A program made the position numbers and the translations under genes. The notes beneath the pieces were generated by a model. The model did not search any database. It saw nothing but the letters and a program-made list of their open reading frames with translations, and was not told the DNA's origin. 64,000 nucleotides of DNA, taken from NCBI GenBank assembly GCA_024645245.1, contig JAHEBN010000004.1:5184-69183 (forward strand). The letters are read 5' to 3'. Of this stretch, positions 4,025-64,000 are shown in pieces; positions within the stretch are counted from its first letter, which is position 1, and each line of letters begins with the position of its first letter. This stretch comes from Jiulongibacter sp. (lineage in GTDB: Bacteria; Bacteroidota; Bacteroidia; Cytophagales; Spirosomataceae).

Positions 4025-5164
4025 TTATAATTTCTCTTTGAAAACCTCATAGCCAAAGCTTTTATGTAATTCAAAAGTTTGATCAGTCTTCCAGACACCT
4101 ATCGATGGCAATCCAACCCCGTTGAAAGTGGTGGTTTTTACCATGGTATAATGTATCATATCATCAAAAACCAATGTATCGCCTATCTTCAAAGCTTCGT
4201 CAAAGGCATAATCACCAATAAAGTCACCGGCTAAGCAGGTCATTCCACCCATGCGGTAATTGTGTTTACCGGGAATATCAGTTTGATAAGCACCCAAAAT
4301 TCTGGGTTTATAGGGCATCTCCAGGGTATCCGGCATGTGTGCGGCAAAACTTACGTCTAATATGGCCACGTTTATCCCTTGGGCATCCACTATGTCTAAA
4401 ACCTTCGACGTTAAAACACCGGTTTCCCAGGCTATGGCAGATCCCGGTTCAAGTATTACTTCGAGGTTATATGTATTTCTCAGGCGTTCAATTTGTTTTA
4501 TCAGATGCAGGTGATTGTATCCCGAGCGTGTCATTAAATGCCCACCGCCCATATTAAGCCACTTGACCTGATGCAATAAATCACCAAATTTTTCCTCCAC
4601 ATGTACGAGAGTTCTTTCTAATACATAAGAATCATTTTCACACATAGTATGAAAATGCAGTCCTTCGATTCCTTCCGGAAGCTGATCACCCAGAGCTTCG
4701 CGGGTAATCCCCAATCGTGAGCCCACTATACAAGGATTGTACATATCTGTGGCTACCTCGGCATACTGCGGGTTTATTCGCAAACCTCTGGATATTTTTC
4801 TCTCATAGCCATCCACCTGATCTTTAAATTGGTGGAATTGATTCAGAGAATTAAAAGTGATGTGCGAACTGTAACTCATCAATTCAGCAAATTCTTCCGG
4901 TTTATACGCCGGAGCATAAGTATGTGCCAGACAATGCATTTCTTCAAAAATCAACCTTGCCTCATTCAGCGAACTTGCCGTAGCCCCAGACAGATATTGC
5001 CTTACCAATGGAAACTCCCTGTACATAGAGAAACCTTTTAACGCCAAAATGATATGTCCGCCACTTTGCTGCTGTACTTCATTTATCAATTTCAGGTTAG
5101 AAATCAGTTTTTCTTCTTCTAATACATAACAAGGTGAAGGAATTTGTGAATAATCAATGGGCAT
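4025..5164 (-). CDS. nspC: carboxynorspermidine/carboxyspermidine decarboxylase
   Basis: 379 aa. The N-terminus IPSPCYVLEEEKLISNLKLI..HIILALKGFSMY..SGATASSLNEARL and the size are typical of NspC (alanine-racemase-fold PLP decarboxylase). The pathway partner gene lies 1.2 kb away. Confidence 0.88.
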   Translation of the reverse strand: MPIDYSQIPSPCYVLEEEKLISNLKLINEVQQQSGGHIILALKGFSMYREFPLVRQYLSGATASSLNEARLIFEEMHCLAHTYAPAYKPEEFAELMSYSSHITFNSLNQFHQFKDQVDGYERKISRGLRINPQYAEVATDMYNPCIVGSRLGITREALGDQLPEGIEGLHFHTMCENDSYVLERTLVHVEEKFGDLLHQVKWLNMGGGHLMTRSGYNHLHLIKQIERLRNTYNLEVILEPGSAIAWETGVLTSKVLDIVDAQGINVAILDVSFAAHMPDTLEMPYKPRILGAYQTDIPGKHNYRMGGMTCLAGDFIGDYAFDEALKIGDTLVFDDMIHYTMVKTTTFNGVGLPSIGVWKTDQTFELHKSFGYEVFKEKL

Positions 5165-5297
5165 TGCTTAAATTTTAAAAGTTGTGCGAATTTAGCAATA
5201 GAGCCTTAATATCCCCTAGTTCTTAGTTGGTAATCTGAAAATTAAGTGGAATTGTATACCGAACTCTTACGGTTCGCCCATTTTGAGTGCCAGGAGT

Positions 5298-6041
5298 TCA
5301 TTTGGGCATTTTGCCAATTACCCTTTTGGCTTCGTCGTCACATCCAAAACCAATCCCCTTCAATATTTCGATTCCACTTATACCACCATCACCTTCTACT
5401 ATAAAATTCACAATTACTCTTCCGCTAATACCGTTTTTTTGAGCCATAGCGGGGTAATTCAGGTTTTTGCCTAACCATTTATACATTTTTTCTATTCCGC
5501 CTTTAAACTCCGGGTGCACTTCGGCTTTTACAAAAACCTTTGTTGACTCATCCACTTTTGGTGCTTCAACTATAGGTGTCATAAGTTCACCTGCCTGATC
5601 TACATTTCCAAAATTATTGAAAGCACCAACATCTTCAGGGTCATCTTCATTTTTGGTGCCTATGATACCAGTTTCGAGTTGATGAATGGTGGGTGGCTCG
5701 TAGGGTGTCTCTTTTGTGTCATTGACGGTGATTGGCGGTACATACTGGTTAACTTTTAATTTCCGTTTTTCTGTAATTTGATTTTCTCTTTTTTCTTCTT
5801 TTACCAATGGAATCAGAAGTTCATTTTCCGGTATTTTTTTCCAAATACGATCCTGTGTTATTGGCATTACGCTAATGATATTTCTGGGAACCAGGTAAAA
5901 ACTGCTCTTCATAATTACACCAAAAGCCAGCACCGAAGTAATAAAGGCTTTACTCAGGTAGTCGGAATAATGAGTTCGTAAATAAAATGTTCCGTAATTT
6001 TTGTTACGGTTTTCAAAAATAATCTCATCAAGGGTTTGCAA
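5298..6041 (-). CDS. energy transducer TonB-family protein, as read truncated by an in-frame TGA; the homologous frame continues to 5223
   Basis: It has IFENRNKNYGTFYLR plus a TM segment, a Pro/Glu-rich linker, and a TonB_C motif (HPEFKGGIEKMYKWLGKNLNYPAMAQKNGISGRVIVNFIVEGDGGISGIEILKGIGFGCDDEAKRVIGKMPK). The start is TTG at 6041. See the finding on the stop codon. Confidence 0.75.
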   Translation of the reverse strand: MQTLDEIIFENRNKNYGTFYLRTHYSDYLSKAFITSVLAFGVIMKSSFYLVPRNIISVMPITQDRIWKKIPENELLIPLVKEEKRENQITEKRKLKVNQYVPPITVNDTKETPYEPPTIHQLETGIIGTKNEDDPEDVGAFNNFGNVDQAGELMTPIVEAPKVDESTKVFVKAEVHPEFKGGIEKMYKWLGKNLNYPAMAQKNGISGRVIVNFIVEGDGGISGIEILKGIGFGCDDEAKRVIGKMPK

Positions 6042-6291
6042 AAGATTTGATTTTCCATTTTTAATAAGTTTTGTGCCCTTATAATGTCTTTTTTCTTCCG
6101 GAAAAATAAAGACAATTTAAGATAGCGGTTTAAGGAAAAAATAGAATTTCAGCTGAATCCGATGAAAAGGTAAAAGTAAAATAGGAAGAATGTAAGCATT
6201 TAACTAAATATTTAGTTATTGTAAATTTAACACTTAATTTGAATGATATTTTTTTGTAATTAATTGTATTTATGACATTTATGAATTAAAA

Positions 6292-6316
6292 AAGGCACCT
6301 GTTTTGCAGGTGCCTT
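6292..6316 (-). terminator. rho-independent terminator downstream of the carboxynorspermidine dehydrogenase gene
   Basis: A 10-bp perfect stem (aaggcacctg / caggtgcctt) has a 5-nt loop. An A6 run at 6288-6293 gives a U-tract on the minus-strand transcript. Confidence 0.7.
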
Positions 6317-6339
6317 AAATTTCAATAAATTGTATTTAA

Positions 6340-7551
6340 TTAATATTCGTGAGGAAGCTCTATATCTACTCTTTCATTCCATGGCAATCCATGAATATTC
6401 AATTTTTCCATAAATGGATCCGGATTGAGCTCTTCGCAATTGTATACACCGGGTTTCATCCAGTCGGCATTGGTGAGCATAAGCATGGCACCAATCATTG
6501 CCGGCACACCGGTTGTATAAGAAACAGCTTGTGATTTCACCTCCTTATATGCCTCAGAGTGGCTACAATTATTCCATACATAATAGGTACGATCTTTTCC
6601 ATCTTTTATGCCTTTTATCTGACAGCCTATGGAAGTTTGTCCGGTATAATTTACTCCCAAAGATTCCGGCGGAGGTAAAACAGCTTTTAGAAATTCCAAA
6701 GGCACCACATCCATTCCTTGAAACTTAATCGGCTTTATACTGGTCATTCCTACATTTTCCAAAACCTGCAAATGGGTAATGTACTGTTGTCCAAAGGTCA
6801 TCCAGAATCGGGCTCTTTTCAAGGTCGGGAAGTTTCTTACCAATGATTCCAGCTCCTCGTGATACAGCACATAAGACTCCTTAGGTCCAATATTCGGGTA
6901 ATCAATGGCTTTGTGAATGCTCATTGCAGGAATTTCTTTCCACTCGCCATTTTCCCAGTATCTACCTGGTTGCGTGATTTCCCGAATATTTATTTCTGGA
7001 TTAAAATTGGTGGCAAATGCTTTTCCGTGATCACCTGCATTACAATCGATGATATCCAAATAATGCATCTCATCAAAATAATGCTTATTGGCATAAGATG
7101 TGAAAACCTGTGTAACTCCAGGATCAAATCCGCAGCCCAATAGTGCCATCAATCCGGCTTCTTTAAACTTTTCCTGATAAGCCCATTGCCAGCTATATTC
7201 AAATTTGGCCACATCTTTTGGCTCGTAATTAGCAGTATCCATATAATGCACACCAGTTGCCAGGCAAGCATCCATTATGGTGAGATCCTGGTAAGGTAGT
7301 GCCACATTTATAACTAATACAGGATTAAAAGTTTTAATCAAACTTACCAATTGCGGTACCACGTCGGCATCTACAGTTGCTGTTTGAATTTTTACTCCGT
7401 GCATTTCCGCAATATCGGAAGCAATTTTATCACACTTTGATTTGGTACGGCTGGCAAGCATGATTTCGGTGAAAACATCACTATTCAGGGCACATTTATG
7501 AGCAACAACTGTTCCCACACCACCGGCACCAATAATCAGGACTTTCGACAT
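6340..7551 (-). CDS. carboxynorspermidine/carboxyspermidine dehydrogenase (saccharopine dehydrogenase family)
   Basis: 403 aa. It has the Rossmann N-terminus MSKVLIIGAGGVGTVVAHK and internal LLGCGFDPGVTQVF and GLPWNER-type segments characteristic of CANSDH. It is paired with nspC. Confidence 0.88.
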   Translation of the reverse strand: MSKVLIIGAGGVGTVVAHKCALNSDVFTEIMLASRTKSKCDKIASDIAEMHGVKIQTATVDADVVPQLVSLIKTFNPVLVINVALPYQDLTIMDACLATGVHYMDTANYEPKDVAKFEYSWQWAYQEKFKEAGLMALLGCGFDPGVTQVFTSYANKHYFDEMHYLDIIDCNAGDHGKAFATNFNPEINIREITQPGRYWENGEWKEIPAMSIHKAIDYPNIGPKESYVLYHEELESLVRNFPTLKRARFWMTFGQQYITHLQVLENVGMTSIKPIKFQGMDVVPLEFLKAVLPPPESLGVNYTGQTSIGCQIKGIKDGKDRTYYVWNNCSHSEAYKEVKSQAVSYTTGVPAMIGAMLMLTNADWMKPGVYNCEELNPDPFMEKLNIHGLPWNERVDIELPHEY

Positions 7552-54204: not shown

Positions 54205-55164
54205 TTATATTTTTAAAAGTTTTACTGTAATCACTACATCTAAAGAAACAAGTATTAAGGCTCCAATTAGAAAATACAGGTATTTATTATTTTGAATAAT
54301 AATTTTACGGTTATCTACCAGGTTATTTTCAACATTGTTAATCGCATTAATTAATGCATTCAGTTCATTATTTTGATTATCTAAAAAAAAAGGAACTGTA
54401 CCGGACCATTTTGCCAATTGATCAATCATACTTTTGTTTAAAGCGGTATATATTTCCAATCCATCCTTATCAGTAAGTAGTTTTCCCTCTTTTATTATAT
54501 TTCCACCTTGTTCTGTGCCAACTCCGGTAAAAAATGATTTAAGTCCATTTTGCTGTAAATCAGTAATATCTTTTTTTGCAATATTACCAAAATCCTCGCC
54601 ATCTGTAAAAAACAACAAAATCTGCCCTCTGTCGTCTTTTACATTTTCCGTCTGTCTATTTTTAATTAACTCGATAGGTGCTGAAAAATTGGTTCCATTG
54701 CTTTCCAACAAATCTGTATCAAGTTGGGAGATATAGTTTTGAACGATGTCAAGATCAAATGTAAGTGGTGTGAGCCAGTAGGCATCAGATGAAAAAAGAA
54801 TGATGCCTATCCTATTATTATTTAACTGATTTACAAGCTGTATTAAATCCAGTTTTAATTTTTCTAATCTTGAAGGGCTTACATCATTGGCATTCATAGA
54901 TTCTGATAAATCGATTGCCATAAAAATATCTTTCCCGGCAGTTTTAGCTTCTGCTTCAGTGATGCCAAAACTTGGCCCCAGAAGTGCGGTTATCATTAAT
55001 CCTAAATACAGGCTCCTAAGGAAAAATTTTACCATTACAGACCTGGAACTGGAATTCAAAATCGCAGATGCCCTTTTTAACCTGAAGAAAAAGAACAGAT
55101 AAGCTAAAAAAAATATAGCTATAAATACCAGTTCTGTGGGTCCTATGGATTTAATCCAGTTCAT
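54205..55164 (-). CDS. von Willebrand factor A domain membrane protein (BatA/BatB-like)
   Basis: It has N- and C-terminal TMs, the MIDAS motif DLSESM, and ILFFTDGED. Confidence 0.8.
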   Translation of the reverse strand: MNWIKSIGPTELVFIAIFFLAYLFFFFRLKRASAILNSSSRSVMVKFFLRSLYLGLMITALLGPSFGITEAEAKTAGKDIFMAIDLSESMNANDVSPSRLEKLKLDLIQLVNQLNNNRIGIILFSSDAYWLTPLTFDLDIVQNYISQLDTDLLESNGTNFSAPIELIKNRQTENVKDDRGQILLFFTDGEDFGNIAKKDITDLQQNGLKSFFTGVGTEQGGNIIKEGKLLTDKDGLEIYTALNKSMIDQLAKWSGTVPFFLDNQNNELNALINAINNVENNLVDNRKIIIQNNKYLYFLIGALILVSLDVVITVKLLKI

Positions 55165-57650
55165 TTATGTGTTGCTGAAATCATATTTGCAAAAAGCTTA
55201 TACGCTCCGGTGATGCCGGCTGGTAATTCACGAAAAAACGAAATTCCGGTATACACATAGTTTCCTTTGCCATAGGGAGTATAAAGCACACTGCTTAATT
55301 TTTCGCTTTCATTTTTATCGTGCATGGAGAATATTGTTTCGTATTTGTCCGACCAGGTTTGTGGATAATACAAACCTCTTTCCTGAATCCATCCGTCGAA
55401 ATCAGATGGTAGGATCTTGTTGGGTTTATTTAATAATACATGTGCAGGTTTAAGAATTTTTATTTCGGCATCTTCTTCACTCACGCGGTCTCTGCCCAGT
55501 TTAATCTCATATGGACCCATTAAGTTTTCAAATTTTGCATTGGAGCTACTCGTATTGTATTGAGTAATCAAATTGCCACCTGCTTTAACATAGTTCATTA
55601 ATTTTTCGTGATAAAACGGCAACCAATCGAGCGTATTATACGCCCTAATTCCAACTATTATCGCCTGATATGCACTTAATGAGCTGCTTAAATCTTTTTC
55701 GCTGAGCAATGTAACGGTATATCCTAAATCTTCTATTGCTTTTGGCATTTCGTCTCCGGCCCCCATGATATAGCCCACTAGTTTTCCGTTTATTTTTATA
55801 TCCAGGTTGCTCACTTTTACTTTAGACTCCGGAAATAACGTAATAAGTGGAATATGCGGATATTCAATTTTTTTAAGACCGCGATCGTAGTTTATGCCGT
55901 TAACCTCCGCCGCAAAGCTTATAAAACCGTTTGATTCGGTTGCGGGAGAAGTTACATTAAAGATAAAGGTCCTTTCGTCGTATTTATTTTTCAATTCAAA
56001 AGGAATCTGCATCGACGAGGATTTCCAGCCAGCTGGTAAAATAATTCTTAACATACCGGAAATGTTATCTGCCGCCGATTTTAAGGTAAGTTTTATTTCC
56101 TTCGTGGTATTGGTATTAAAAACAATCAAATCTTTATCCGGAGTTAAACTTACGGCAGGCCTTACTTCCAGGTTTTGATACACTTCGCCCAAGGAGGGCT
56201 CTACTTTTTTATATCTCACCGGATTGGTAAATTCAATTTCTGTACCTTCCATATTGATTTTAGTTTTTAAAATAAAAGTCTGTGGAGCCATAGGAAGGTT
56301 TCTGTATTTTTCCTCAATCTCATAATGTCCACCTTGATTTTCTTTCCAAAGCCAATAAGGTTGAGTAATAGGGGTGTTCAAAGACACAAAATAACTGATT
56401 GAATTACGAGCCATTTTATTTTCCTCCAAACCGGTATTACTTAAACGGGGAATGGATTCATCATTTATGCTTACCGATTTAACATTCATTTTTAAATTCG
56501 ACCGGTTTACTATCTGAAGTTCCAGTTTCAGACTATCGCCTGAACTTACCGCTTCTGATTTTGCTAAGGCATCAAAGTATAAGCCGCTGCAGGATTGAAT
56601 CAAGGCTAGTATTTCTGTTTTTTTCCTCTCAGTCCAGATATTTTTCGGTAGTGATTCGGTGAATTTTAATAACTGAATTAAACCCGGAATACTTGCAGAA
56701 GGATTTTGGGCATTGAAGTTTGTAATGATTTCATTAATCAGCGGAATTGCAGCTGTACCTCCATTTATCCTATTCCAGGTAAGGTCTACATCATCAAATA
56801 AATCATTTTTTGCTGCTTTCCCTTTTGTATGCAAAACTGTTTCTATTCGTTCATTTCTTACTTTTTCACTTCCAAAACCCTGACTTCGGTGTTGGCTTCT
56901 GGCTTCTGCCGCTATTTCGGTGTATGATTTACCCAAAACCGGATTGTAGTTCCCAATCGATACCTGCAGGTAATCAGATTCGCCTTCAGGTGGAATATTG
57001 GTAAATCCACGGTTATAAAAATTCCATACTAAACGTTTGGCTTGCCATATTTCCGTTTCTTTTAATTGTTCAGGAAATATTTTTGGGTCGGCAGCCGCAT
57101 CGAATGCCTCCGCGGCTAATTGTGCTGAAGCTGAGTGATGCCCATGTCCAGCTCTTTCATCCGGCGGAAAACGGGTTATTATCACATCGGGTTTAAATTT
57201 TCGGATTCGATACACTAAATCCGCCAGAATTAATTCTTTTCCCCAGGTATTTAATGCTTCTTCCGTGGTTTTGGTATAGCCGAAATCAATAGCTCTGGTA
57301 AAAAACTGCTCCCCACCATCAATACTTCTGGCCCCCAGAAGTTCATGAGTTCGCAAAAGGCCGGCAAGAGCTCCTTGTTCTGTACCTATTAAATTTTGTC
57401 CACCATCACCTCTTGTCATCGATATGTAGGCAGTACTTACTTTTTTCTCTTTACTTAACCAGGTAATAAACAGGGTGTTTTCGTCATCCGGGTGTGCGGC
57501 TACATAAAGTGCCGAGCCTACCACTTTCAATTTTTCCAAACCTTCCATTATTTCGGAAGTGCCTGTTGGAATGGATTGAGCTTGGCTCAAAATGGAGTAA
57601 AATAAAAAACTTAAACCAAAGAGAAGTTTTTTCATAAATTTGCTTTTCAT
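55161..57650 (-). CDS. secreted PIG-L/LmbE-family deacetylase with large C-terminal extension
   Basis: It has a signal peptide and the motifs VAAHPDDE and GHGHH. 829 aa. Its stop overlaps the VWA gene start (ATGA). Confidence 0.78.
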   Translation of the reverse strand: MKSKFMKKLLFGLSFLFYSILSQAQSIPTGTSEIMEGLEKLKVVGSALYVAAHPDDENTLFITWLSKEKKVSTAYISMTRGDGGQNLIGTEQGALAGLLRTHELLGARSIDGGEQFFTRAIDFGYTKTTEEALNTWGKELILADLVYRIRKFKPDVIITRFPPDERAGHGHHSASAQLAAEAFDAAADPKIFPEQLKETEIWQAKRLVWNFYNRGFTNIPPEGESDYLQVSIGNYNPVLGKSYTEIAAEARSQHRSQGFGSEKVRNERIETVLHTKGKAAKNDLFDDVDLTWNRINGGTAAIPLINEIITNFNAQNPSASIPGLIQLLKFTESLPKNIWTERKKTEILALIQSCSGLYFDALAKSEAVSSGDSLKLELQIVNRSNLKMNVKSVSINDESIPRLSNTGLEENKMARNSISYFVSLNTPITQPYWLWKENQGGHYEIEEKYRNLPMAPQTFILKTKINMEGTEIEFTNPVRYKKVEPSLGEVYQNLEVRPAVSLTPDKDLIVFNTNTTKEIKLTLKSAADNISGMLRIILPAGWKSSSMQIPFELKNKYDERTFIFNVTSPATESNGFISFAAEVNGINYDRGLKKIEYPHIPLITLFPESKVKVSNLDIKINGKLVGYIMGAGDEMPKAIEDLGYTVTLLSEKDLSSSLSAYQAIIVGIRAYNTLDWLPFYHEKLMNYVKAGGNLITQYNTSSSNAKFENLMGPYEIKLGRDRVSEEDAEIKILKPAHVLLNKPNKILPSDFDGWIQERGLYYPQTWSDKYETIFSMHDKNESEKLSSVLYTPYGKGNYVYTGISFFRELPAGITGAYKLFANMISATHK

Positions 57651-57653
57651 AAA

Positions 57654-60506
57654 ATGCAGGAAGTGATAAGAAAAATTCTGATTTATTTAATGTTGTTGAT
57701 TCCTGCTATTGGAATCAGTCAGCAAATTAATAAGGATTTTGTGGATGGGGAAATATATGTACAGCTCAAACCTGCCTATTTGATAAAAACCGATAAAAAG
57801 AACAAAGAGGTAGATATATCTAAAGAGTTGGTTCAGGTTAATCGCTCGATAAATAAGCTTGATAATAAAATAGAGAAAGCACAATCTCCATTTTATAAAT
57901 TGAAATCTGACAAACTTAAAGGAGTTTACCGGATAAAAATCGAAAATGATCAGGACATAGATGAAGTAATAAAGGTTTTGAAATCTGATCCATCTGTTAG
58001 TCGTGTTGAAAAAGTTGCTCTACGCAGGATCATAAGCTTTCCTACCGACACCAGCTATACTAATCAATGGAATTTAAAGAAAATCAAAGCATCTGAAGCT
58101 TGGGATGTAAACCCCGGTGGGGCCATAGTAAAAGTTGGAATAGTGGATAATGCATTTGAAATCAATCATCCGGATTTAAGTGCCAATATGCTACCCGGAT
58201 ATGATTTGGGTGACGACGATACCAATCCTTCTCCGCCGAATGTAAATTTCAGTCATGGCACTCACGTAGCCGGCATTGTAAGTGCAGTTACCAATAATGT
58301 GCGTGGCATAGCTGCCGCTGCCAATAATAAAGTTAAAATTGTGCCTTTCAAAGCTACTCCAAATTTGGGGAGTTATAATTCCATTTATTATGGGTTTGAA
58401 GGGATAATAGCTGCTGCGGATAGTGGGGTTCAGATAATCAGCCTTTCCTGGGGAGGTCCTGGTTTTTCCCAAACCGAGCAGGATGTAATTGATTATGCCT
58501 ATCAGAATGGGGTTATGGTAATCGCCGCTGCAGGAAATGAAGATTCGGATGTACCTCAATACCCGGCTTCTTACAACCATGTCATTTCGGTTGCCGCCCT
58601 AGATTCAACCGATATAAGAAGTTATTTCAGCAGCTATGGAAGTCTGGTGGATATTGCTGCACCGGGCAGGGGAATATTAAGTACCATACCCTTTAATTCT
58701 TATGCTTCTTACAGCGGTACATCCATGGCTACTCCACTTGTGGCTTCGTGTGCCGGGTACCTGATGTCTTGCTTCCCGGGTATAAGTATTGATTCGGTTG
58801 AGATAATTTTAAAAAATACCGCTGATAATATTGATGCTCAAAACCCGGATTTTATTAACCAATTAGGTGCCGGCAGAATCAATTTATATAAAGCCGTAGC
58901 CTGTCAGCAATCTGGATTATTTAATGAAAAAGTAAGCATTAGCGGCGGAAATTACATTTGTCAGGGTGATACTACAGTACTTACCATAAATGCAGTAGCT
59001 TCCGAAACTTTCGAATGGTTTTTAAATAATCAATCGGTAGGAACCGGAAATGATTTAACTGTTACAGAATCAGGATCTTATGTTTTGAAACGAACCTTGG
59101 GAGCCTGTCTTTTGGAAGAAGAAGCAATAAACATATTTGAAAACAAAATCAAAACGCCGACACCACAGGTTTCGGGTAATTTAGATTTGTTTTATTGTTC
59201 AAATCCTGAATATCTGGTTGCTACAGAAGCCGATTGCAATGTATTTGGACCACTGACTTACACCTATTCGGGTGGTACGGTAGGCTTTGATGGTTATGAG
59301 AAAAGCGGACCTTTTCTGCAAATAGACGTTCAAGGTATTGGAGGTCTTATTGAATCCGTTGAAGTGAGTATCAGCTGGCAGAAAAAAGACGGCGGCGATG
59401 AAACAGCCTGCGGGATTCCGGATGGAGGAGCCACGCCATTCAATGAAGAGGTATTTTTTGCATTTATTTCGCCACAAGGCACGCAGATTGACCTTATTCA
59501 GGAAGGTACCTATTCCAAAGGGAATGTGAGCTCGGGAGTGGTAACCACTACATTTAAAGTGGGTGCTCCGGCTATTGTACAAAGTTCATTACCTACCACA
59601 GGCACTTATAGTCCGTCTGGTAATTTAGACCTGTTACAGGGAGAGATTCCGGTAGGAAACTGGACATTAATCGCTTCGGATAATGCCACACTTGATCCAC
59701 TATGTGTAAGTGGGTTCAGTGTAAAAATAAAAACAATTGCTCCACAGTCTCCGCCGGTATTTACCTGGTATAACATGGCTAATGGAGGCTTAAAACTGGT
59801 GGAAAATGATTCTTTATCCGTTAATCCTAACACTGTTGGCAAACAAAATTATTTTGTAACTCAGCGATGCGGTGGTTTATGCGAAAGTTACCGGATTCCG
59901 GCAAGCGTGAAGGTTAAGCCTATTCCTACCTTATTAGCATTTCCGGAATCGGAATCCATTTTAAGTGAAAGTCAAAAAGACGAGATATTAAATGCACTAA
60001 CGATAAGTCATTATATCAATGCCCAAAACCTTTATTTTGTTTCCGGAATAAATCAAAGCAATCAGGCTTTTGATTACCAGATTTCAAATCAGGCACCTTC
60101 GGTTTCACCTGTTACTTTATGTGTCGATACTTCCTATGTGGTATTTGGCTTGGGATGTAACGGTACCATAAGCTGGAGTAATGGATCGACGGGTATGTTT
60201 GTTTATCTGGAGAAAGTGGTGGATCCAGTCTTGATTACGGCTACTTGCAATCAAAACTGGAATTGCACACCATTGGCCAATATCCCATTTGAATTCAAAT
60301 CCAATCAGACGCTTTTATCTTTAAGTGGGAATACAGAAGTAAGTGGATTGCAAAATTTTTACGGCAGCCCGATAGAATCAGATCAGGAAATTGCCGAATC
60401 TGCACGTATTGAATATTTATCGCCCACATCCATTCTTCTAAAACCCGGCTTCAGCACTTCCAATCAAAGTATTTTTAAGGCAGAAACAGGCAATTGCGTC
60501 AATTAG
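57654..60506 (+). CDS. secreted S8 (subtilisin) family serine peptidase with proprotein-convertase P-domain and C-terminal PGF-type module
   Basis: It has a signal peptide and an I9-like propeptide. The catalytic triad contexts are VGIVDNAF, HGTHVAGIV and SGTSMATPLVA. The P-domain-like segment is GNWTLIASDNATLDPLCVSGFSVKI. Confidence 0.88.
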   Translation: MQEVIRKILIYLMLLIPAIGISQQINKDFVDGEIYVQLKPAYLIKTDKKNKEVDISKELVQVNRSINKLDNKIEKAQSPFYKLKSDKLKGVYRIKIENDQDIDEVIKVLKSDPSVSRVEKVALRRIISFPTDTSYTNQWNLKKIKASEAWDVNPGGAIVKVGIVDNAFEINHPDLSANMLPGYDLGDDDTNPSPPNVNFSHGTHVAGIVSAVTNNVRGIAAAANNKVKIVPFKATPNLGSYNSIYYGFEGIIAAADSGVQIISLSWGGPGFSQTEQDVIDYAYQNGVMVIAAAGNEDSDVPQYPASYNHVISVAALDSTDIRSYFSSYGSLVDIAAPGRGILSTIPFNSYASYSGTSMATPLVASCAGYLMSCFPGISIDSVEIILKNTADNIDAQNPDFINQLGAGRINLYKAVACQQSGLFNEKVSISGGNYICQGDTTVLTINAVASETFEWFLNNQSVGTGNDLTVTESGSYVLKRTLGACLLEEEAINIFENKIKTPTPQVSGNLDLFYCSNPEYLVATEADCNVFGPLTYTYSGGTVGFDGYEKSGPFLQIDVQGIGGLIESVEVSISWQKKDGGDETACGIPDGGATPFNEEVFFAFISPQGTQIDLIQEGTYSKGNVSSGVVTTTFKVGAPAIVQSSLPTTGTYSPSGNLDLLQGEIPVGNWTLIASDNATLDPLCVSGFSVKIKTIAPQSPPVFTWYNMANGGLKLVENDSLSVNPNTVGKQNYFVTQRCGGLCESYRIPASVKVKPIPTLLAFPESESILSESQKDEILNALTISHYINAQNLYFVSGINQSNQAFDYQISNQAPSVSPVTLCVDTSYVVFGLGCNGTISWSNGSTGMFVYLEKVVDPVLITATCNQNWNCTPLANIPFEFKSNQTLLSLSGNTEVSGLQNFYGSPIESDQEIAESARIEYLSPTSILLKPGFSTSNQSIFKAETGNCVN

Positions 60507-60559
60507 AGAAGCATTTTTCCAATTTCTTTAATTTGTTTTTTATTCTCTTTGTTAAATCC

Positions 60560-60567
60560 TAAATTTG
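60560..60567 (+). promoter_or_regulatory. candidate -7 promoter box (TAAATTTG) for the pyrophosphatase gene
   Basis: It matches TAnnTTTG exactly, 58 nt upstream of the ATG at 60625. A TTTG lies about 25 nt further upstream (60532-60535). Confidence 0.3.
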
Positions 60568-60624
60568 CGGAACTTTTTGTAAAAATTATCAAAAAACTAA
60601 ACTAAGATAAATCAAAAAAACCTT

Positions 60625-63243
60625 ATGGATTCATTATTTTACGTGGTTCCTGTATTGGGATTTGTTGGGCTCGTTTTCATGTTTGTGAAAGCCAGTTGGG
60701 TAACAAAACAAGATGCAGGAAATGGAAAAATGCAAGAAATAGCAAGTGCAATTGCAGATGGGGCATTGGCATTCTTAAAAGCTGAATGGAAAGTTCTCGG
60801 AATTTTTGGAGCCGCTGTTTCTATACTTCTGGCCTGGTCGGGTACCTTGGTAGAAAGTTCTAACTGGCTTATTGGTGTTGCTTTTTTAATCGGAGCCTTT
60901 GTTTCCGCTTTTGCAGGATATATAGGAATGAATATAGCCACCAAGGCGAATGTTCGTACCACACAGGCTGCCCGTACCAGTCTTAAGCAAGCACTTAAGG
61001 TTTCATTTACCGGTGGTTCGGTAATGGGACTTGGGGTTGCTGGTTTGGCGGTTCTGTTTATGAGTTTATTATTTATCTGGTTCTACCATGCTTTTGTTAC
61101 CGGTTCTGGTGATACACACGGCATGGAAAAAGCATTGGAAGTACTTGCCGGTTTCTCTTTGGGTGCCGAATCAATCGCCTTGTTTGCTCGTGTAGGCGGC
61201 GGTATTTATACCAAAGCTGCCGATGTGGGAGCCGACCTGGTAGGTAAAGTAGAAGCGGGTATTCCGGAAGATGATCCCAGAAACCCGGCAACTATTGCCG
61301 ATAACGTAGGTGATAACGTTGGTGATGTTGCAGGTATGGGAGCCGATTTATTTGGTTCATACGTTGCTACTATTTTAGCCACTATGGTTTTGGGTCGTGA
61401 AATAGTTTCTGATGATAATGTGGGCGGCTGGGCTCCAATTTTGTTGCCTATGTTGATCGCAGGAGTTGGTCTGGTATTTTCGGCGATCAGTACATTTTTT
61501 GTAACGGTAAAAGACGACAATGGAAATGTACAAAATGCCTTGAATATCGGTAACTGGGGTGCCATAGCCATGACAGCTATAGCAGCTTATCCGATGGTAA
61601 TGAACTTAATGCCTGCCGAGATGAATATCCGCGGTGTGGACTTTACCAATATGGATGTATTCCTGGCCATCATTTTAGGATTGGTAGTGGGAGCGATCAT
61701 GTCGTGGATCACCGAGATTTATACCGCTATGGGTAAAAGACCTGTAAACACCATTGTTCAACAGTCATCAACGGGTCATGCCACCAATATTATCGGTGGT
61801 TTGTCTATTGGTATGGAAAGCACGGTGGTTCCTATTTTAACTTTGGCAGCCGGTATATTTTTATCATTTAAATTGGCCGGTTTATACGGTGTGGCGATTG
61901 CTGCCGCAGGTATGATGGCTACCACTGCCATGCAGTTGGCCATTGATGCATTTGGACCTATTGCTGATAATGCCGGTGGAATTGCCGAAATGAGCGAATT
62001 GCCAAAAGAAGTAAGAGAAAGAACAGATATTTTAGATGCCGTAGGAAATACCACAGCTGCATCGGGTAAAGGATTTGCCATCGCTTCAGCAGCTTTAACC
62101 GCACTTGCTTTATTTGCGGCGTTTGTTGGTTTATCGGGCATTTCTTCGATAGATATCTATAAGGCGGATGTGCTCGCAGGCCTTTTTGTGGGTGGTATGA
62201 TTCCTTTTATATTTTCGTCATTGGCTATTGCCGCAGTAGGTAGAGCAGCCATGAAAATGGTGGAAGAAGTAAGACGCCAGTTCCGCGAAATACCTGGAAT
62301 TATGGAAGGTACAGGAAAGCCTGAATACGACAAATGTGTGGCTATCTCAACTCAGGCTTCGATCCGCGAAATGATTGCTCCGGGTCTTATTGCCCTATTG
62401 GTACCTGTGATTGTTGGTTTCAGTTTTGGGCCGGAGGTGCTTGGTGGTTTGTTGGCCGGTGTTACCGTTTCAGGTGTATTGATGGGTATATTCATGAATA
62501 ACGCCGGTGGTGCCTGGGATAATGCTAAAAAATCATTCGAGAAAGGCGTGGAGATTAATGGCGAAATGTATTACAAAGGTTCAGATCCACACAAGGCAGC
62601 CGTAACCGGCGATACCGTGGGTGATCCATTCAAAGATACTTCAGGGCCATCGATGAATATTTTGATCAAATTGATGTCGATCGTTTCTTTGGTAATTGCT
62701 CCACATATTGCTCAGAACGACGCCTCTGCCATGCATGCAGGTGACGATATGGTAACTGAAATTACGGAAGTGGTAGAAGTTGCAACAGACAATTTATCAA
62801 AAACCTTGAGCAATGGTATCTCTCTGAACTTTTCCAAAGATGGTATTGAAGATCAGGTAATAGCATTTATTGAAAATCCGGATGCAGAATTATCGAAAGA
62901 TCTTTGGTTTAATTTCAAAGACCTGAATTTTGCCAGCGGAAGCGATCAATTGGATGCCAGTTCATTAAAAGAGGTTGATAATATTGCTGAAATCTTAAAG
63001 GCCTATCCGGCAGTAAACCTTAAAATTGGCGGATACACAGATAATACCGGCACAGCAGATGCTAATCTTACCTTATCTACCAAACGAGCCGCTTCTGTAA
63101 AGGCGGCCATAGTAGCCAAAGGAATTGACGCCACCAGACTGGAATCGGAAGGCTATGGCCAGGAGCAGCCTGCAGCCAGCAACGATACCGAAGAAGGCCG
63201 TGCACAAAACAGAAGAATAGCTGTAAGCGTACGAGCTAAATAA
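60625..63243 (+). CDS. hppA: membrane-integral (K+-dependent type) ion-translocating pyrophosphatase fused to a C-terminal OmpA-like domain
   Basis: M-PPase motifs: [78 protein letters not shown]. An OmpA_C-type domain follows from nt 62716 onward in the same ORF: [33 protein letters not shown]. Confidence 0.9.
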
Positions 63244-63264
63244 GTAACAAATTAATAAGTATAG

Positions 63265-63296
63265 AAAAATCCCGGAGGCGACTTCGGGATTTTTTG
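63265..63296 (+). terminator. rho-independent terminator after hppA
   Basis: The stem aaaaatcccgga / ttcgggattttt (one G-U pair) has a 6-nt loop and is followed by TTTTTGTTTT. Confidence 0.72.
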
Positions 63297-63699
63297 TTTT
63301 GGGTATGAATGGTGTTCTGGAATGCAAATGATGTTTTTGATACTTGTAGGATCAAAATCGGCTTTTAAAAATGAAATAAAAAGAGATTTAAATTAAAGTT
63401 TGATTATTAACTCGGAAATACTTGAATTTTAATTCGAACTCACGATATAGATACCTACATGACCTAAGTTCATGGATACAAAAAAGCAAATATTTGAATG
63501 AGATTTATGTCGCCTTAAAAAGTACTTTGATGTAAAAAAATAAAAATAAATTAAACTCATTTTCAACCCATTTAGACCAGGAATACGGTATAAAATACTC
63601 TGAATACGGGAAACTTATCAACAAGATTTTGAGGCTTTCAAACTTAGAGTGACGTTTACAGAGCCAGGTAAAAAAGGCCTGACAGAAATACTAACCAAC

Positions 63700-63736
63700 A
63701 AAAAAAAGTCTTTCCACTTGTGAAAAGACTTTTTTT
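63700..63736. terminator. bidirectional rho-independent terminator downstream of rplY
   Basis: 13-nt complementary arms (aaaaaaagtcttt / aaagacttttttt) flank a 10-nt loop. The A8 run on the left and T7 run on the right give a U-tract on either strand. Confidence 0.7.
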
Positions 63737-63757
63737 AGATCGAATAAACAAAAGATT

Positions 63758-64000
63758 TTATTCTGCAGCTTCAGCTGGTGTGCCTGAATCATCTGAATCG
63801 TCATCGTCGTCGGCAGAGGCTGCACCCATGGCAGTTCTTGCAGAACGAGGGATAGTTACAGAAGCAACCGGATTAGCGGCACTTTCCAGGATAGTAACAC
63901 CCTCCAGGGCAATAACTTCAACCTTTACCGACTGACCCAATTTCAAGGCTGTTACATCCACATCCACGTATTCAGGAATGTTTTTTACAGGACCTTGTAA
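63758..64000 (-). CDS. rplY: 50S ribosomal protein L25/general stress protein Ctc (3' part only; continues beyond window)
   Basis: The frame is open to nt 64000. The sequence ..LQGPVKNIPEYVDVDVTALKLGQSVKVEVIALEGVTILESAANPVASV is followed by the acidic tail SADDDDDSDDSG typical of the long Ctc form. Confidence 0.8.
   Translation of the reverse strand, partial: LQGPVKNIPEYVDVDVTALKLGQSVKVEVIALEGVTILESAANPVASVTIPRSARTAMGAASADDDDDSDDSGTPAEAAE

Follow-up and report, generated by a model that had tools for sequence, protein, structure and literature searches.

An OmpA-like module at the C-terminus of a membrane pyrophosphatase from Jiulongibacter and its Cytophagales relatives

Membrane pyrophosphatases (M-PPases) are commonly described as the simplest of the primary ion pumps, made of one polypeptide with 16 helices and devoid of accessory domains. 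Here we analyze an M-PPase gene of Jiulongibacter sp. (Bacteroidota; Cytophagales) whose product continues beyond its last transmembrane (TM) helix into an acidic linker and an OmpA-like module. The gene lies on the plus strand of a 64,000-nucleotide (nt) stretch of DNA, the whole of which is called the window below (contig JAHEBN010000004.1 of assembly GCA_024645245.1, positions 5,184 to 69,183), and occupies window positions 60625-63243 as a single open reading frame (ORF) of 872 codons with an ATG start and zero internal stops. An earlier note, drawn from the DNA letters alone, had described this uninterrupted ORF as a complete M-PPase followed by a C-terminal OmpA-like domain; hidden Markov model (HMM), structure-prediction and comparative tests agree with that description, and all the motifs that it quoted are present, including LSTKRA and NRRIAV. 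We consider it probable, with moderate rather than high confidence, that the OmpA-like tail serves as a non-covalent tether of the pump dimer to peptidoglycan.

A complete pump followed by an OmpA-like module

The coding sequence and the features of its pump part are the following, with the evidence in brackets.

60625 to 63243, plus strand: complete coding sequence for M-PPase, linker and OmpA-like module, 872 amino acids (aa) plus stop (ORF reading, Pfam, NCBIfam, homologues)
60625 to 62715, plus strand: M-PPase domain, residues 1-697, 16 TM helices (Pfam, alignment to VrPPase and TmPPase, AlphaFold2 (AF2) model)
61168 to 61170, plus strand: codon of E182, position 5.43, the semi-conserved gate Glu of Flavobacterium johnsoniae-type H+-PPases (aligned to VrPPase S235)
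62056 to 62058, plus strand: codon of A478, position 12.46, marker of K+ dependence (aligned to VrPPase A537)
62584 to 62715, plus strand: TM helix 16, residues 654-697, with gate residues N678 (16.46) and K682 (16.50) and a periplasmic end (alignment, model, published topology)

Full-length HMM matches above curated cut-offs place the protein among the membrane pyrophosphatases. Residues 14-691 match the Pfam H_PPase profile (PF03030) from its position 2 to its last, 645 (E 2.6e-269; 895.7 bits against a threshold of 29.7). The best NCBIfam model, NF001955 (1245.6 bits; cut-off 1059), aligns residues 4-715 with its positions 5-718 of 736 and runs only about 18 positions beyond the equivalent of residue 715. 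TIGR01104 is matched as well (908.6 bits; cut-off 651.9). The pump aligns to the solved structures of VrPPase (4A01, E 5.5e-176) and TmPPase (4AV3, E 1.9e-161), and its cytoplasmic acidic motifs are identical to those of VrPPase and invariant in 47 homologues.

Residue numbering followed the VrPPase alignment and Supplementary Table 1 of PMC5150537, in which VrPPase R242, D294, K541 and K742 stand at positions 5.50, 6.50, 12.50 and 16.50. An Ala at 12.46 characterizes K+-dependent M-PPases and a Lys at the same position the K+-insensitive class (PMC5150537). The Ala found there, A478, bears out the K+-dependent class already proposed in the earlier note, and the pump is predicted to be catalytically complete and K+-dependent. 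That note had held the choice between Na+ and H+ to be undecidable by eye; the gate residues do allow a prediction. A gate Glu at 5.43 is the signature of the F. johnsoniae-type K+-dependent H+-PPase (Luoto et al. 2011, tabulated in PMC6882861), and both Na+-PPase and Na+,H+-PPase carry their gate Glu at 6.53 (Table 1, PMC6882861). The window protein has Glu at 5.43 (E182) and none at 6.53, where an invariant Gly stands (G244), or at 6.57 (A248); A478, E182, G244, A248, N678 and K682 are all invariant in the 47-sequence alignment. From Glu at 5.43 together with Gly at 6.53 and Ala at 6.57 we infer a pump that would export H+ at the expense of pyrophosphate (PPi), of the F. johnsoniae type, and not Na+. 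It shares with the latter the complete 16-helix M-PPase, Ala at 12.46, Glu at 5.43 and an origin in Bacteroidota. It differs in the 175-aa linker and OmpA-like module, the published descriptions of the F. johnsoniae-type enzyme naming no periplasmic domain. The named homologues of the window protein bear the public names "sodium-translocating pyrophosphatase" or "K(+)-stimulated pyrophosphate-energized sodium pump". Judged by the position of the gate Glu, the one sequence criterion that can be tested, the automatic "sodium-translocating" name appears to be wrong.

Beyond helix 16, conservation over 119 homologues splits the tail into a variable linker, a conserved extension and an OmpA core. 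Confidence in the models is given as the predicted local distance difference test (pLDDT).

62716 to 62814, plus strand: linker, acidic and disordered, residues 698-730 with a net charge of -6 (both models give a pLDDT below 50)
62815 to 62928, plus strand: conserved N-terminal extension of the module, residues 731-768, a helix and a WFxF segment (conservation, tail model)
62929 to 63240, plus strand: OmpA-like core, residues 769-872, beta-alpha-beta-alpha-beta-beta fold (Pfam, Protein Data Bank (PDB) sequence matches, Foldseek)
63040 to 63042, plus strand: codon of D806, equivalent to the diaminopimelate contact Asp271 of AbOmpA, the OmpA of Acinetobacter baumannii (TDNTG motif aligned to 3TD3)
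63085 to 63087, plus strand: codon of R821, equivalent to the diaminopimelate contact Arg286 of AbOmpA (LSxxRA motif, 15 residues past D806 as in AbOmpA)

The linker measures 25-56 aa in the 119 homologues, is variable and gappy, and has a median net charge of -4. Ahead of the helix of the extension, the models place the strands of a predicted beta-hairpin at residues ~723-737, so that the hairpin begins within the part assigned to the linker. Conserved residues of the extension are G731, L734, G740, E742, L745, F748, I749, K758, W761, F762, F764 and L767; its pLDDT reaches 91-95 in the tail model, and it aligns with the tails of the DUF937 family described below. The appended domain had been estimated at about 110 aa in the earlier note. 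Its OmpA-like nature stands, and its size has to be revised, the structured tail amounting to about 145 aa once the conserved beta-hairpin and helix before the Pfam core are included. In the nearest homologue, P0002 (83% identity; second row of the alignment), a Cys/His-rich segment, ESEAMACCEGAAKCEMHAGKEACTCDKGECKAHPDH, takes the place of the linker and hairpin part; it may be a linker that binds metal or is rich in disulfides. The segment resembles the Cys-rich tails of two metagenomic fragments, P0128 and P0182.

The core passes the Pfam OmpA threshold with ease (PF00691 on residues 769-863, 75 bits against a gathering score of 27.2), a check that the earlier note had proposed, and its sequence matches in the PDB are YiaD, PA0833, Capnocytophaga gingivalis OmpA and AbOmpA. 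An AF2 model of the tail alone has a mean pLDDT of 85; its first 21 residues stay below 50, and the hairpin-helix extension and the core average 77-98 per 10-residue block. Searched against the PDB with Foldseek, this model retrieves only peptidoglycan-binding OmpA-like domains, with a probability of 1.00. Among them are the C-domain of C. gingivalis OmpA (5WTP; root-mean-square deviation 1.0 Å over 105 columns, 40% identity) and A. baumannii OmpA (3TD3 and 3TD5, the latter a complex with a peptidoglycan pentapeptide; TM-score 0.81-0.82, normalized by target length). The others are PA0833-PD, which is the top match, OprF, YiaD, YfiB, TagL, Pal, MotB and PorE. Asp271 and Arg286 are the residues with which AbOmpA contacts diaminopimelate (PMC12108004); the equivalent D806 is conserved in at least 99% of the homologues and R821 in 100%. 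An HMM match above the gathering score, a superposable fold, the Asp/Arg pair and a periplasmic location deduced from homology thus characterize the module as OmpA-like, and its canonical fold is predicted to be competent for peptidoglycan binding. It seems very improbable that the domain binds another ligand instead, for instance a different envelope polymer or a protein partner. OmpA-like domains are versatile, and PA0833-PD has been described with an enlarged binding pocket; however, the diaminopimelate-binding pair and the motif around it are 99-100% conserved, and the closest solved relatives, including the Bacteroidota OmpA C-domain at 40% identity, bind peptidoglycan.

Topology, distribution and selection

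The full-length AF2 model is of moderate quality (mean pLDDT 67) and contains 16 long helices, the last of which spans residues 654-697. Even-numbered M-PPase helices have their N-termini on the cytoplasmic side (PMC8657866), which brings the end of helix 16 out on the periplasmic face. Gate and exit channel are formed by an inner ring of helices that includes helix 16 (PMC10897367), and the tail thus emerges beside the ion exit. A 19-residue Kyte-Doolittle scan past residue 698 detected no hydrophobic segment, its maximum being 0.66 as compared with more than 1.5 for TM helices. Because helix 16 ends on the periplasmic side and no hydrophobic segment follows it, the tail is periplasmic according to this homology-based topology, as the earlier note had argued.

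The fusion is conserved throughout a group of Bacteroidota. When about 5.8 billion proteins were searched, all but one of the 120 best clusters (119) had both Pfam domains in proteins of 864-900 aa, and finished genomes are represented among them (Spirosoma linguale, Arcticibacterium luteifluviistationis, Dyadobacter and Fibrella). Scanning species-representative genomes with the tail alignment returned 80 loci, 36 of which are independent in-frame PPase-tail fusions. They belong to Emticicia, Leadbetterella, Lacihabitans, Jiulongibacter, Arcicella, Pseudarcicella, Larkinella, Spirosoma, Dyadobacter and several Bacteroidota metagenome-assembled genomes (MAGs). The spread of the architecture, which the earlier note had proposed to check, thus extends across Cytophagales, and in this genome scan the fusion was seen only in Bacteroidota. 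A Ferruginibacter (Chitinophagaceae) fragment displays the same PPase-OmpA architecture with a longer linker. For the pump, the closest named relatives of the window protein come from Jiulongibacter and Arcticibacterium (81%); for the tail, they come from Emticicia (67%). The search of protein representatives with residues 620-872 is not a census, as full-length fusions sit inside 50%-identity PPase clusters; what it brought up were fragments and proteins with the OmpA part alone, among them the DUF937 family and the alternative tails described below. A homologue search seeded with the BON+OmpA fragment P0132, which returned mostly short metagenomic fragments, yielded no full-length fusion outside Bacteroidota and brought up further PPase+OmpA and PPase+YceI fragments.

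The ratio of nonsynonymous to synonymous substitution rates (dN/dS), calculated by the Nei-Gojobori method with six informative pairs for the structured tail, is 0.04-0.14 in that tail, 0.01-0.085 in the pump and 0.03-0.93 in the linker. The tail is under purifying selection. These data bear on the trivial explanation of a missed stop, a frameshift or an assembly chimera joining the PPase to a downstream OmpA-family gene, against which the earlier note had called for a check. The same in-frame architecture recurs in 119 of 120 best clusters and at 36 independent genome loci, finished chromosomes included, the dN/dS of the tail is about 0.1, and GC content runs unbroken across the junction, where no signal peptide, start-codon context or intergenic remnant was found. 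An artefact of this kind is vanishingly unlikely.

One relative has the pump without the module. The orthologue of Marinilongibacter aquaticus (CP083757.1; P0086, locus L001 at 5001-7220) is syntenic and 83-84% identical, with matching upstream genes for a PIG-L-domain protein and an S8 peptidase. The OmpA module is missing: the protein is 739 aa long and ends in a 42-aa acidic tail, and no OmpA remnant lies downstream. In the pump-domain tree Marinilongibacter is nested within the fusion clade, which points to secondary loss of the tail and hence to a pump that does not need it; the comparison implies that the tail is dispensable for pumping. The Marinilongibacter enzyme can be regarded as a natural tail-deletion variant.

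The surroundings of the window gene can be described as follows.

55161 to 57650, minus strand: ORF of 829 aa at the position of the PIG-L-domain gene of relatives
57654 to 60506, plus strand: subtilisin-like (Peptidase_S8) protein of 950 aa
60560 to 60567, plus strand: putative promoter element TAAATTTG, 57 nt upstream of the ATG (read from the sequence)
63264 to 63295, plus strand: intrinsic terminator, a hairpin followed by a T-run, 21 nt past the stop codon of the PPase gene
63300 to 63720: about 420 nt of AT-rich DNA (28-31% GC) in which no ORF of at least 60 aa is listed
63736 to 63701, minus strand: terminator-like hairpin of a convergent gene

The PPase gene is monocistronic and has its own strong terminator. 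The region upstream of it is AT-rich and includes TAAATTTG, which fits the Bacteroidota -7 promoter consensus, TAnnTTTG. A sigma-70 promoter scan gave 9 sites where 9.4 were expected, that is no enrichment, a result that is uninformative for Bacteroidota. The AT-rich stretch between the two terminators has no Rfam match at gathering threshold, and an Rfam scan of positions 60000-64000 returned zero matches. The PIG-L and Peptidase_S8 labels of the window neighbours were transferred from the orthologous loci L001 and L003. Their arrangement is syntenic with Arcticibacterium and Marinilongibacter and not with Spirosoma, whose PPase gene has neighbours that differ from those of Arcticibacterium and the window. 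The earlier note had suggested that the tail might localize the enzyme near gliding or type IX secretion system (T9SS) machinery. Nothing in the comparison of neighbourhoods across genera ties the PPase gene to gliding or T9SS genes, and this suggestion has found no support. An operon partner or a gliding or T9SS link was dropped for the same reason: PIG-L and S8 peptidase genes lie upstream in the window group only, and the Spirosoma neighbours differ.

Origin of the tail

In an exhaustive search of protein representatives, residues ~720-872 were found to be 50-58% identical to the C-termini of many proteins of 400-450 aa. These begin with a DUF937 domain (PF06078), which is followed by a Gly/Ser-rich stretch, a single TM helix, a linker, the hairpin-helix extension and the OmpA core, and they account for 32 of the 80 loci of the genome scan.

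DUF937-TM-OmpA loci: L007, L013, L015-L018, L021, L023, L033, L034, L036, L038, L039, L042, L043, L048, L049, L053, L057, L059, L061, L064, L066-L068, L072, L075-L080; proteins P0133, P0142, P0148

Carriers of such proteins belong to Bacteroidota, Pseudomonadota, Acidobacteriota, Gemmatimonadota, Armatimonadota and other groups, and some of them encode a PPase fusion in the same genome. The whole periplasmic part (linker, extension and OmpA core) is 54-62% identical to the tail of the window PPase and likewise follows directly upon an N-in/C-out TM helix, which provides independent support for the periplasmic location of the PPase tail. The anchors differ: cytoplasmic DUF937 and one TM helix in proteins of many phyla, versus a 16-helix pump in Bacteroidota. 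The window ORF has no PF06078 match, and the periplasmic module alone is shared. The DUF937-TM-OmpA family is likely a generic tether between inner membrane and peptidoglycan across many phyla. A literature search for DUF937 together with OmpA returned no papers.

The history of the tail was approached with a bootstrapped neighbour-joining tree (148 columns, 200 replicates), a distance-based reconstruction from short alignments. The PPase tails of Emticicia, Leadbetterella, Jiulongibacter and Arcticibacterium group with DUF937 tails of Siphonobacter, Lacihabitans and Leadbetterella in 86% of replicates, and in 0% do all Cytophagales PPase tails form a single clade. In agreement with this grouping, the closest of these DUF937 tails share 60-62% identity with the window tail, versus 51-57% for the PPase tails of Spirosoma and Dyadobacter. 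Multiple origins are likely on these grounds, through repeated fusion or through exchange of tails with a DUF937 paralogue. Recent gene conversion between the two kinds of tail was ruled out, as they are only 54% identical within the same MAGs. Because the module pre-exists in the DUF937-TM-OmpA family, the tail appears to be an inner-membrane-to-peptidoglycan tether that was probably transplanted onto the pump, and more than once.

Some metagenomic fragments have an M-PPase part that closes with the same helix 16, of the Bacteroidota type, and carry other C-terminal modules, presumably periplasmic too. The tails are YceI-like in P0232, P0267, P0319 and P0320, a Mip-like FKBP (FKBP_N+FKBP_C) in P0223, Cys/His/Met-rich in P0182 and P0128, and BON+OmpA in P0132 and P0294; P0245, P0270, P0210, P0260 and P0239 bear unassigned tails, each some 100 aa long. 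Periplasmic domains may thus find a general point of attachment in the M-PPase C-terminus, the sequences concerned being fragments for which chimeric or read-through calls are possible.

A pump that merely offers a stable, abundant dimeric scaffold to periplasmic modules, to the benefit of the envelope and not of the pump itself, would account for this variety of tails, for a module normally found on an unrelated anchor, DUF937 with a TM helix, and for a fusion made or remade several times. We nevertheless judge such a piggy-back arrangement unlikely, though worth keeping in view. Most of the alternative tails come from metagenomic fragments only and could reflect read-through or chimeric calls, whereas the fusion is nearly universal in two families and the tail has been kept on this particular protein, which suggests an advantage specific to the pump. 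The arrangement also overlaps largely with tethering of the pump as such, the mechanism being the same and only the beneficiary another.

Possible function and precedents

As we picture it, the two-part inner-membrane protein would combine a K+-dependent, PPi-driven H+ pump with a periplasmic leash and module, the leash being the flexible acidic linker of about 33 aa after helix 16 and the module the ~145 aa that follow. The homodimeric pump would then display two peptidoglycan-binding domains on flexible leashes, and we infer that these bind the sacculus non-covalently. Such binding would immobilize or position the pump under the wall, and the abundant dimer might double as a staple between inner membrane and peptidoglycan, catalysis and pumping remaining independent of the tail. 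With 25-56 residues in the leash and a domain measuring about 40 Å, the tail could plausibly bridge the distance from inner membrane to peptidoglycan, usually quoted as about 100 Å. Tethering would presumably bring a physiological benefit.

Several points weigh against this picture. The full-length model is moderate, and docking of the tail on the periplasmic face of the pump is possible. No conserved neighbour gene hints at a partner, and we know of no mechanical or localization rationale for tethering a pump. Pure stapling would be redundant in genomes that, as is often the case, also encode a DUF937-TM-OmpA protein. Given the YceI and FKBP modules on related PPase C-termini, the pump may be simply a convenient anchor.

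Alternatively, the tail might regulate the pump, either by relaying peptidoglycan engagement, or its loss, through the linker to helix 16 or by capping the exit channel. In both cases the activity of the pump would follow the state of the envelope, the plug and activation of MotB/PomB serving as the analogy. Helix 16, with N16.46 and K16.50, does belong to the inner ring, ligands at the periplasmic face can inhibit TmPPase allosterically (PMC8657866), and the hairpin and helix of the extension resemble the N-terminal segments of YfiB and PA0833 (Foldseek, 131-141 columns). On the other hand, a linker that is poorly conserved (25-56 aa), predicted to be disordered and evolving with a dN/dS of up to 0.9 would be a poor transmitter; the module is interchangeable with that of pump-less DUF937 proteins; and the tail has disappeared from a nested lineage whose pump stayed intact. 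We regard regulatory coupling as quite unlikely. A bolder conjecture, to which we give little credence, is a pump sensitive to the state of the wall: engagement of the sacculus would pull helix 16 or uncap the exit channel and tune H+ export to envelope geometry, or would fix the pump as a local proton source for peptidoglycan-anchored consumers of proton-motive force. More broadly, the M-PPase C-terminus would then be a recurrent docking platform in Bacteroidota (OmpA, YceI, FKBP, Cys-rich).

The fusion has partial precedents. According to a 2024 PeerJ review (PMC11210485), a ~110-residue domain that weakly resembles OmpA is present on a predicted K+-insensitive M-PPase of Paucibacter and in related Burkholderiales, its role being left open; this is the sole link between M-PPases and OmpA-like domains that we found in the literature. 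The M-PPase of Paucibacter sp. KCTC 42545 (UniProt A0A0U2VTE8) has the same order of parts, an M-PPase and then a C-terminal domain of ~110 aa recognized as OmpA-like by HMMER. Its published description sets it apart: it is betaproteobacterial, predicted to be K+-insensitive and 810 aa long, with a weak or partial OmpA resemblance, whereas the window family is K+-dependent (A478 at 12.46), carries Glu at 5.43, belongs to Cytophagales and has a 75-bit OmpA match and a DUF937-type extension. An older precedent is PsaB of Gloeobacter violaceus (7F4V chain aB), which matches window residues 769-870 in the PDB search (E 8.3e-10). It too is a bioenergetic protein, polytopic in the cytoplasmic membrane, that ends in an OmpA-like domain; by coincidence it is also of 872 aa. 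Its extension has been hypothesized to anchor photosystem I to peptidoglycan. In contrast to the window protein, it is a photosystem subunit restricted to Gloeobacter, and its extension is unseen in the structure. The earlier note knew of no described wall-tethered primary pump; to call the architecture undescribed would be too strong. The PPase-OmpA fusion of Bacteroidota is present in databases and unremarked in the literature for that phylum, and has partial precedent only.

MotB/PomB and TagL/TssL offer a different comparison, supported by both sequence and fold matches in the PDB. In them too a flexible periplasmic linker joins the membrane part to an OmpA-like domain that binds peptidoglycan; unlike the window protein, they anchor force-generating or envelope-spanning machines via a single TM helix and need partner subunits. 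The protein studied here would be a primary pump complete in itself; no mechanical output is known for it, and no partner genes lie close by. It is not a MotB/PomB stator: a PPase of 16 helices makes up its membrane part, there is no MotA-like gene next to it, and the NCBIfam MotD model gives 82.6 bits against a cut-off of 283.

Two consequences concern the reading of genomes. Systematic annotation is corrected where "sodium-translocating" names stand against gate residues that predict H+ pumping, and the DUF937-TM-OmpA family is flagged as a probable general tether. The fusion does not resolve a long-standing question. It shows a branch of Cytophagales that keeps a predicted peptidoglycan-binding module on its pump and so departs from the accessory-free picture of M-PPases, and it raises the question of why a proton pump should be fixed to the cell wall.

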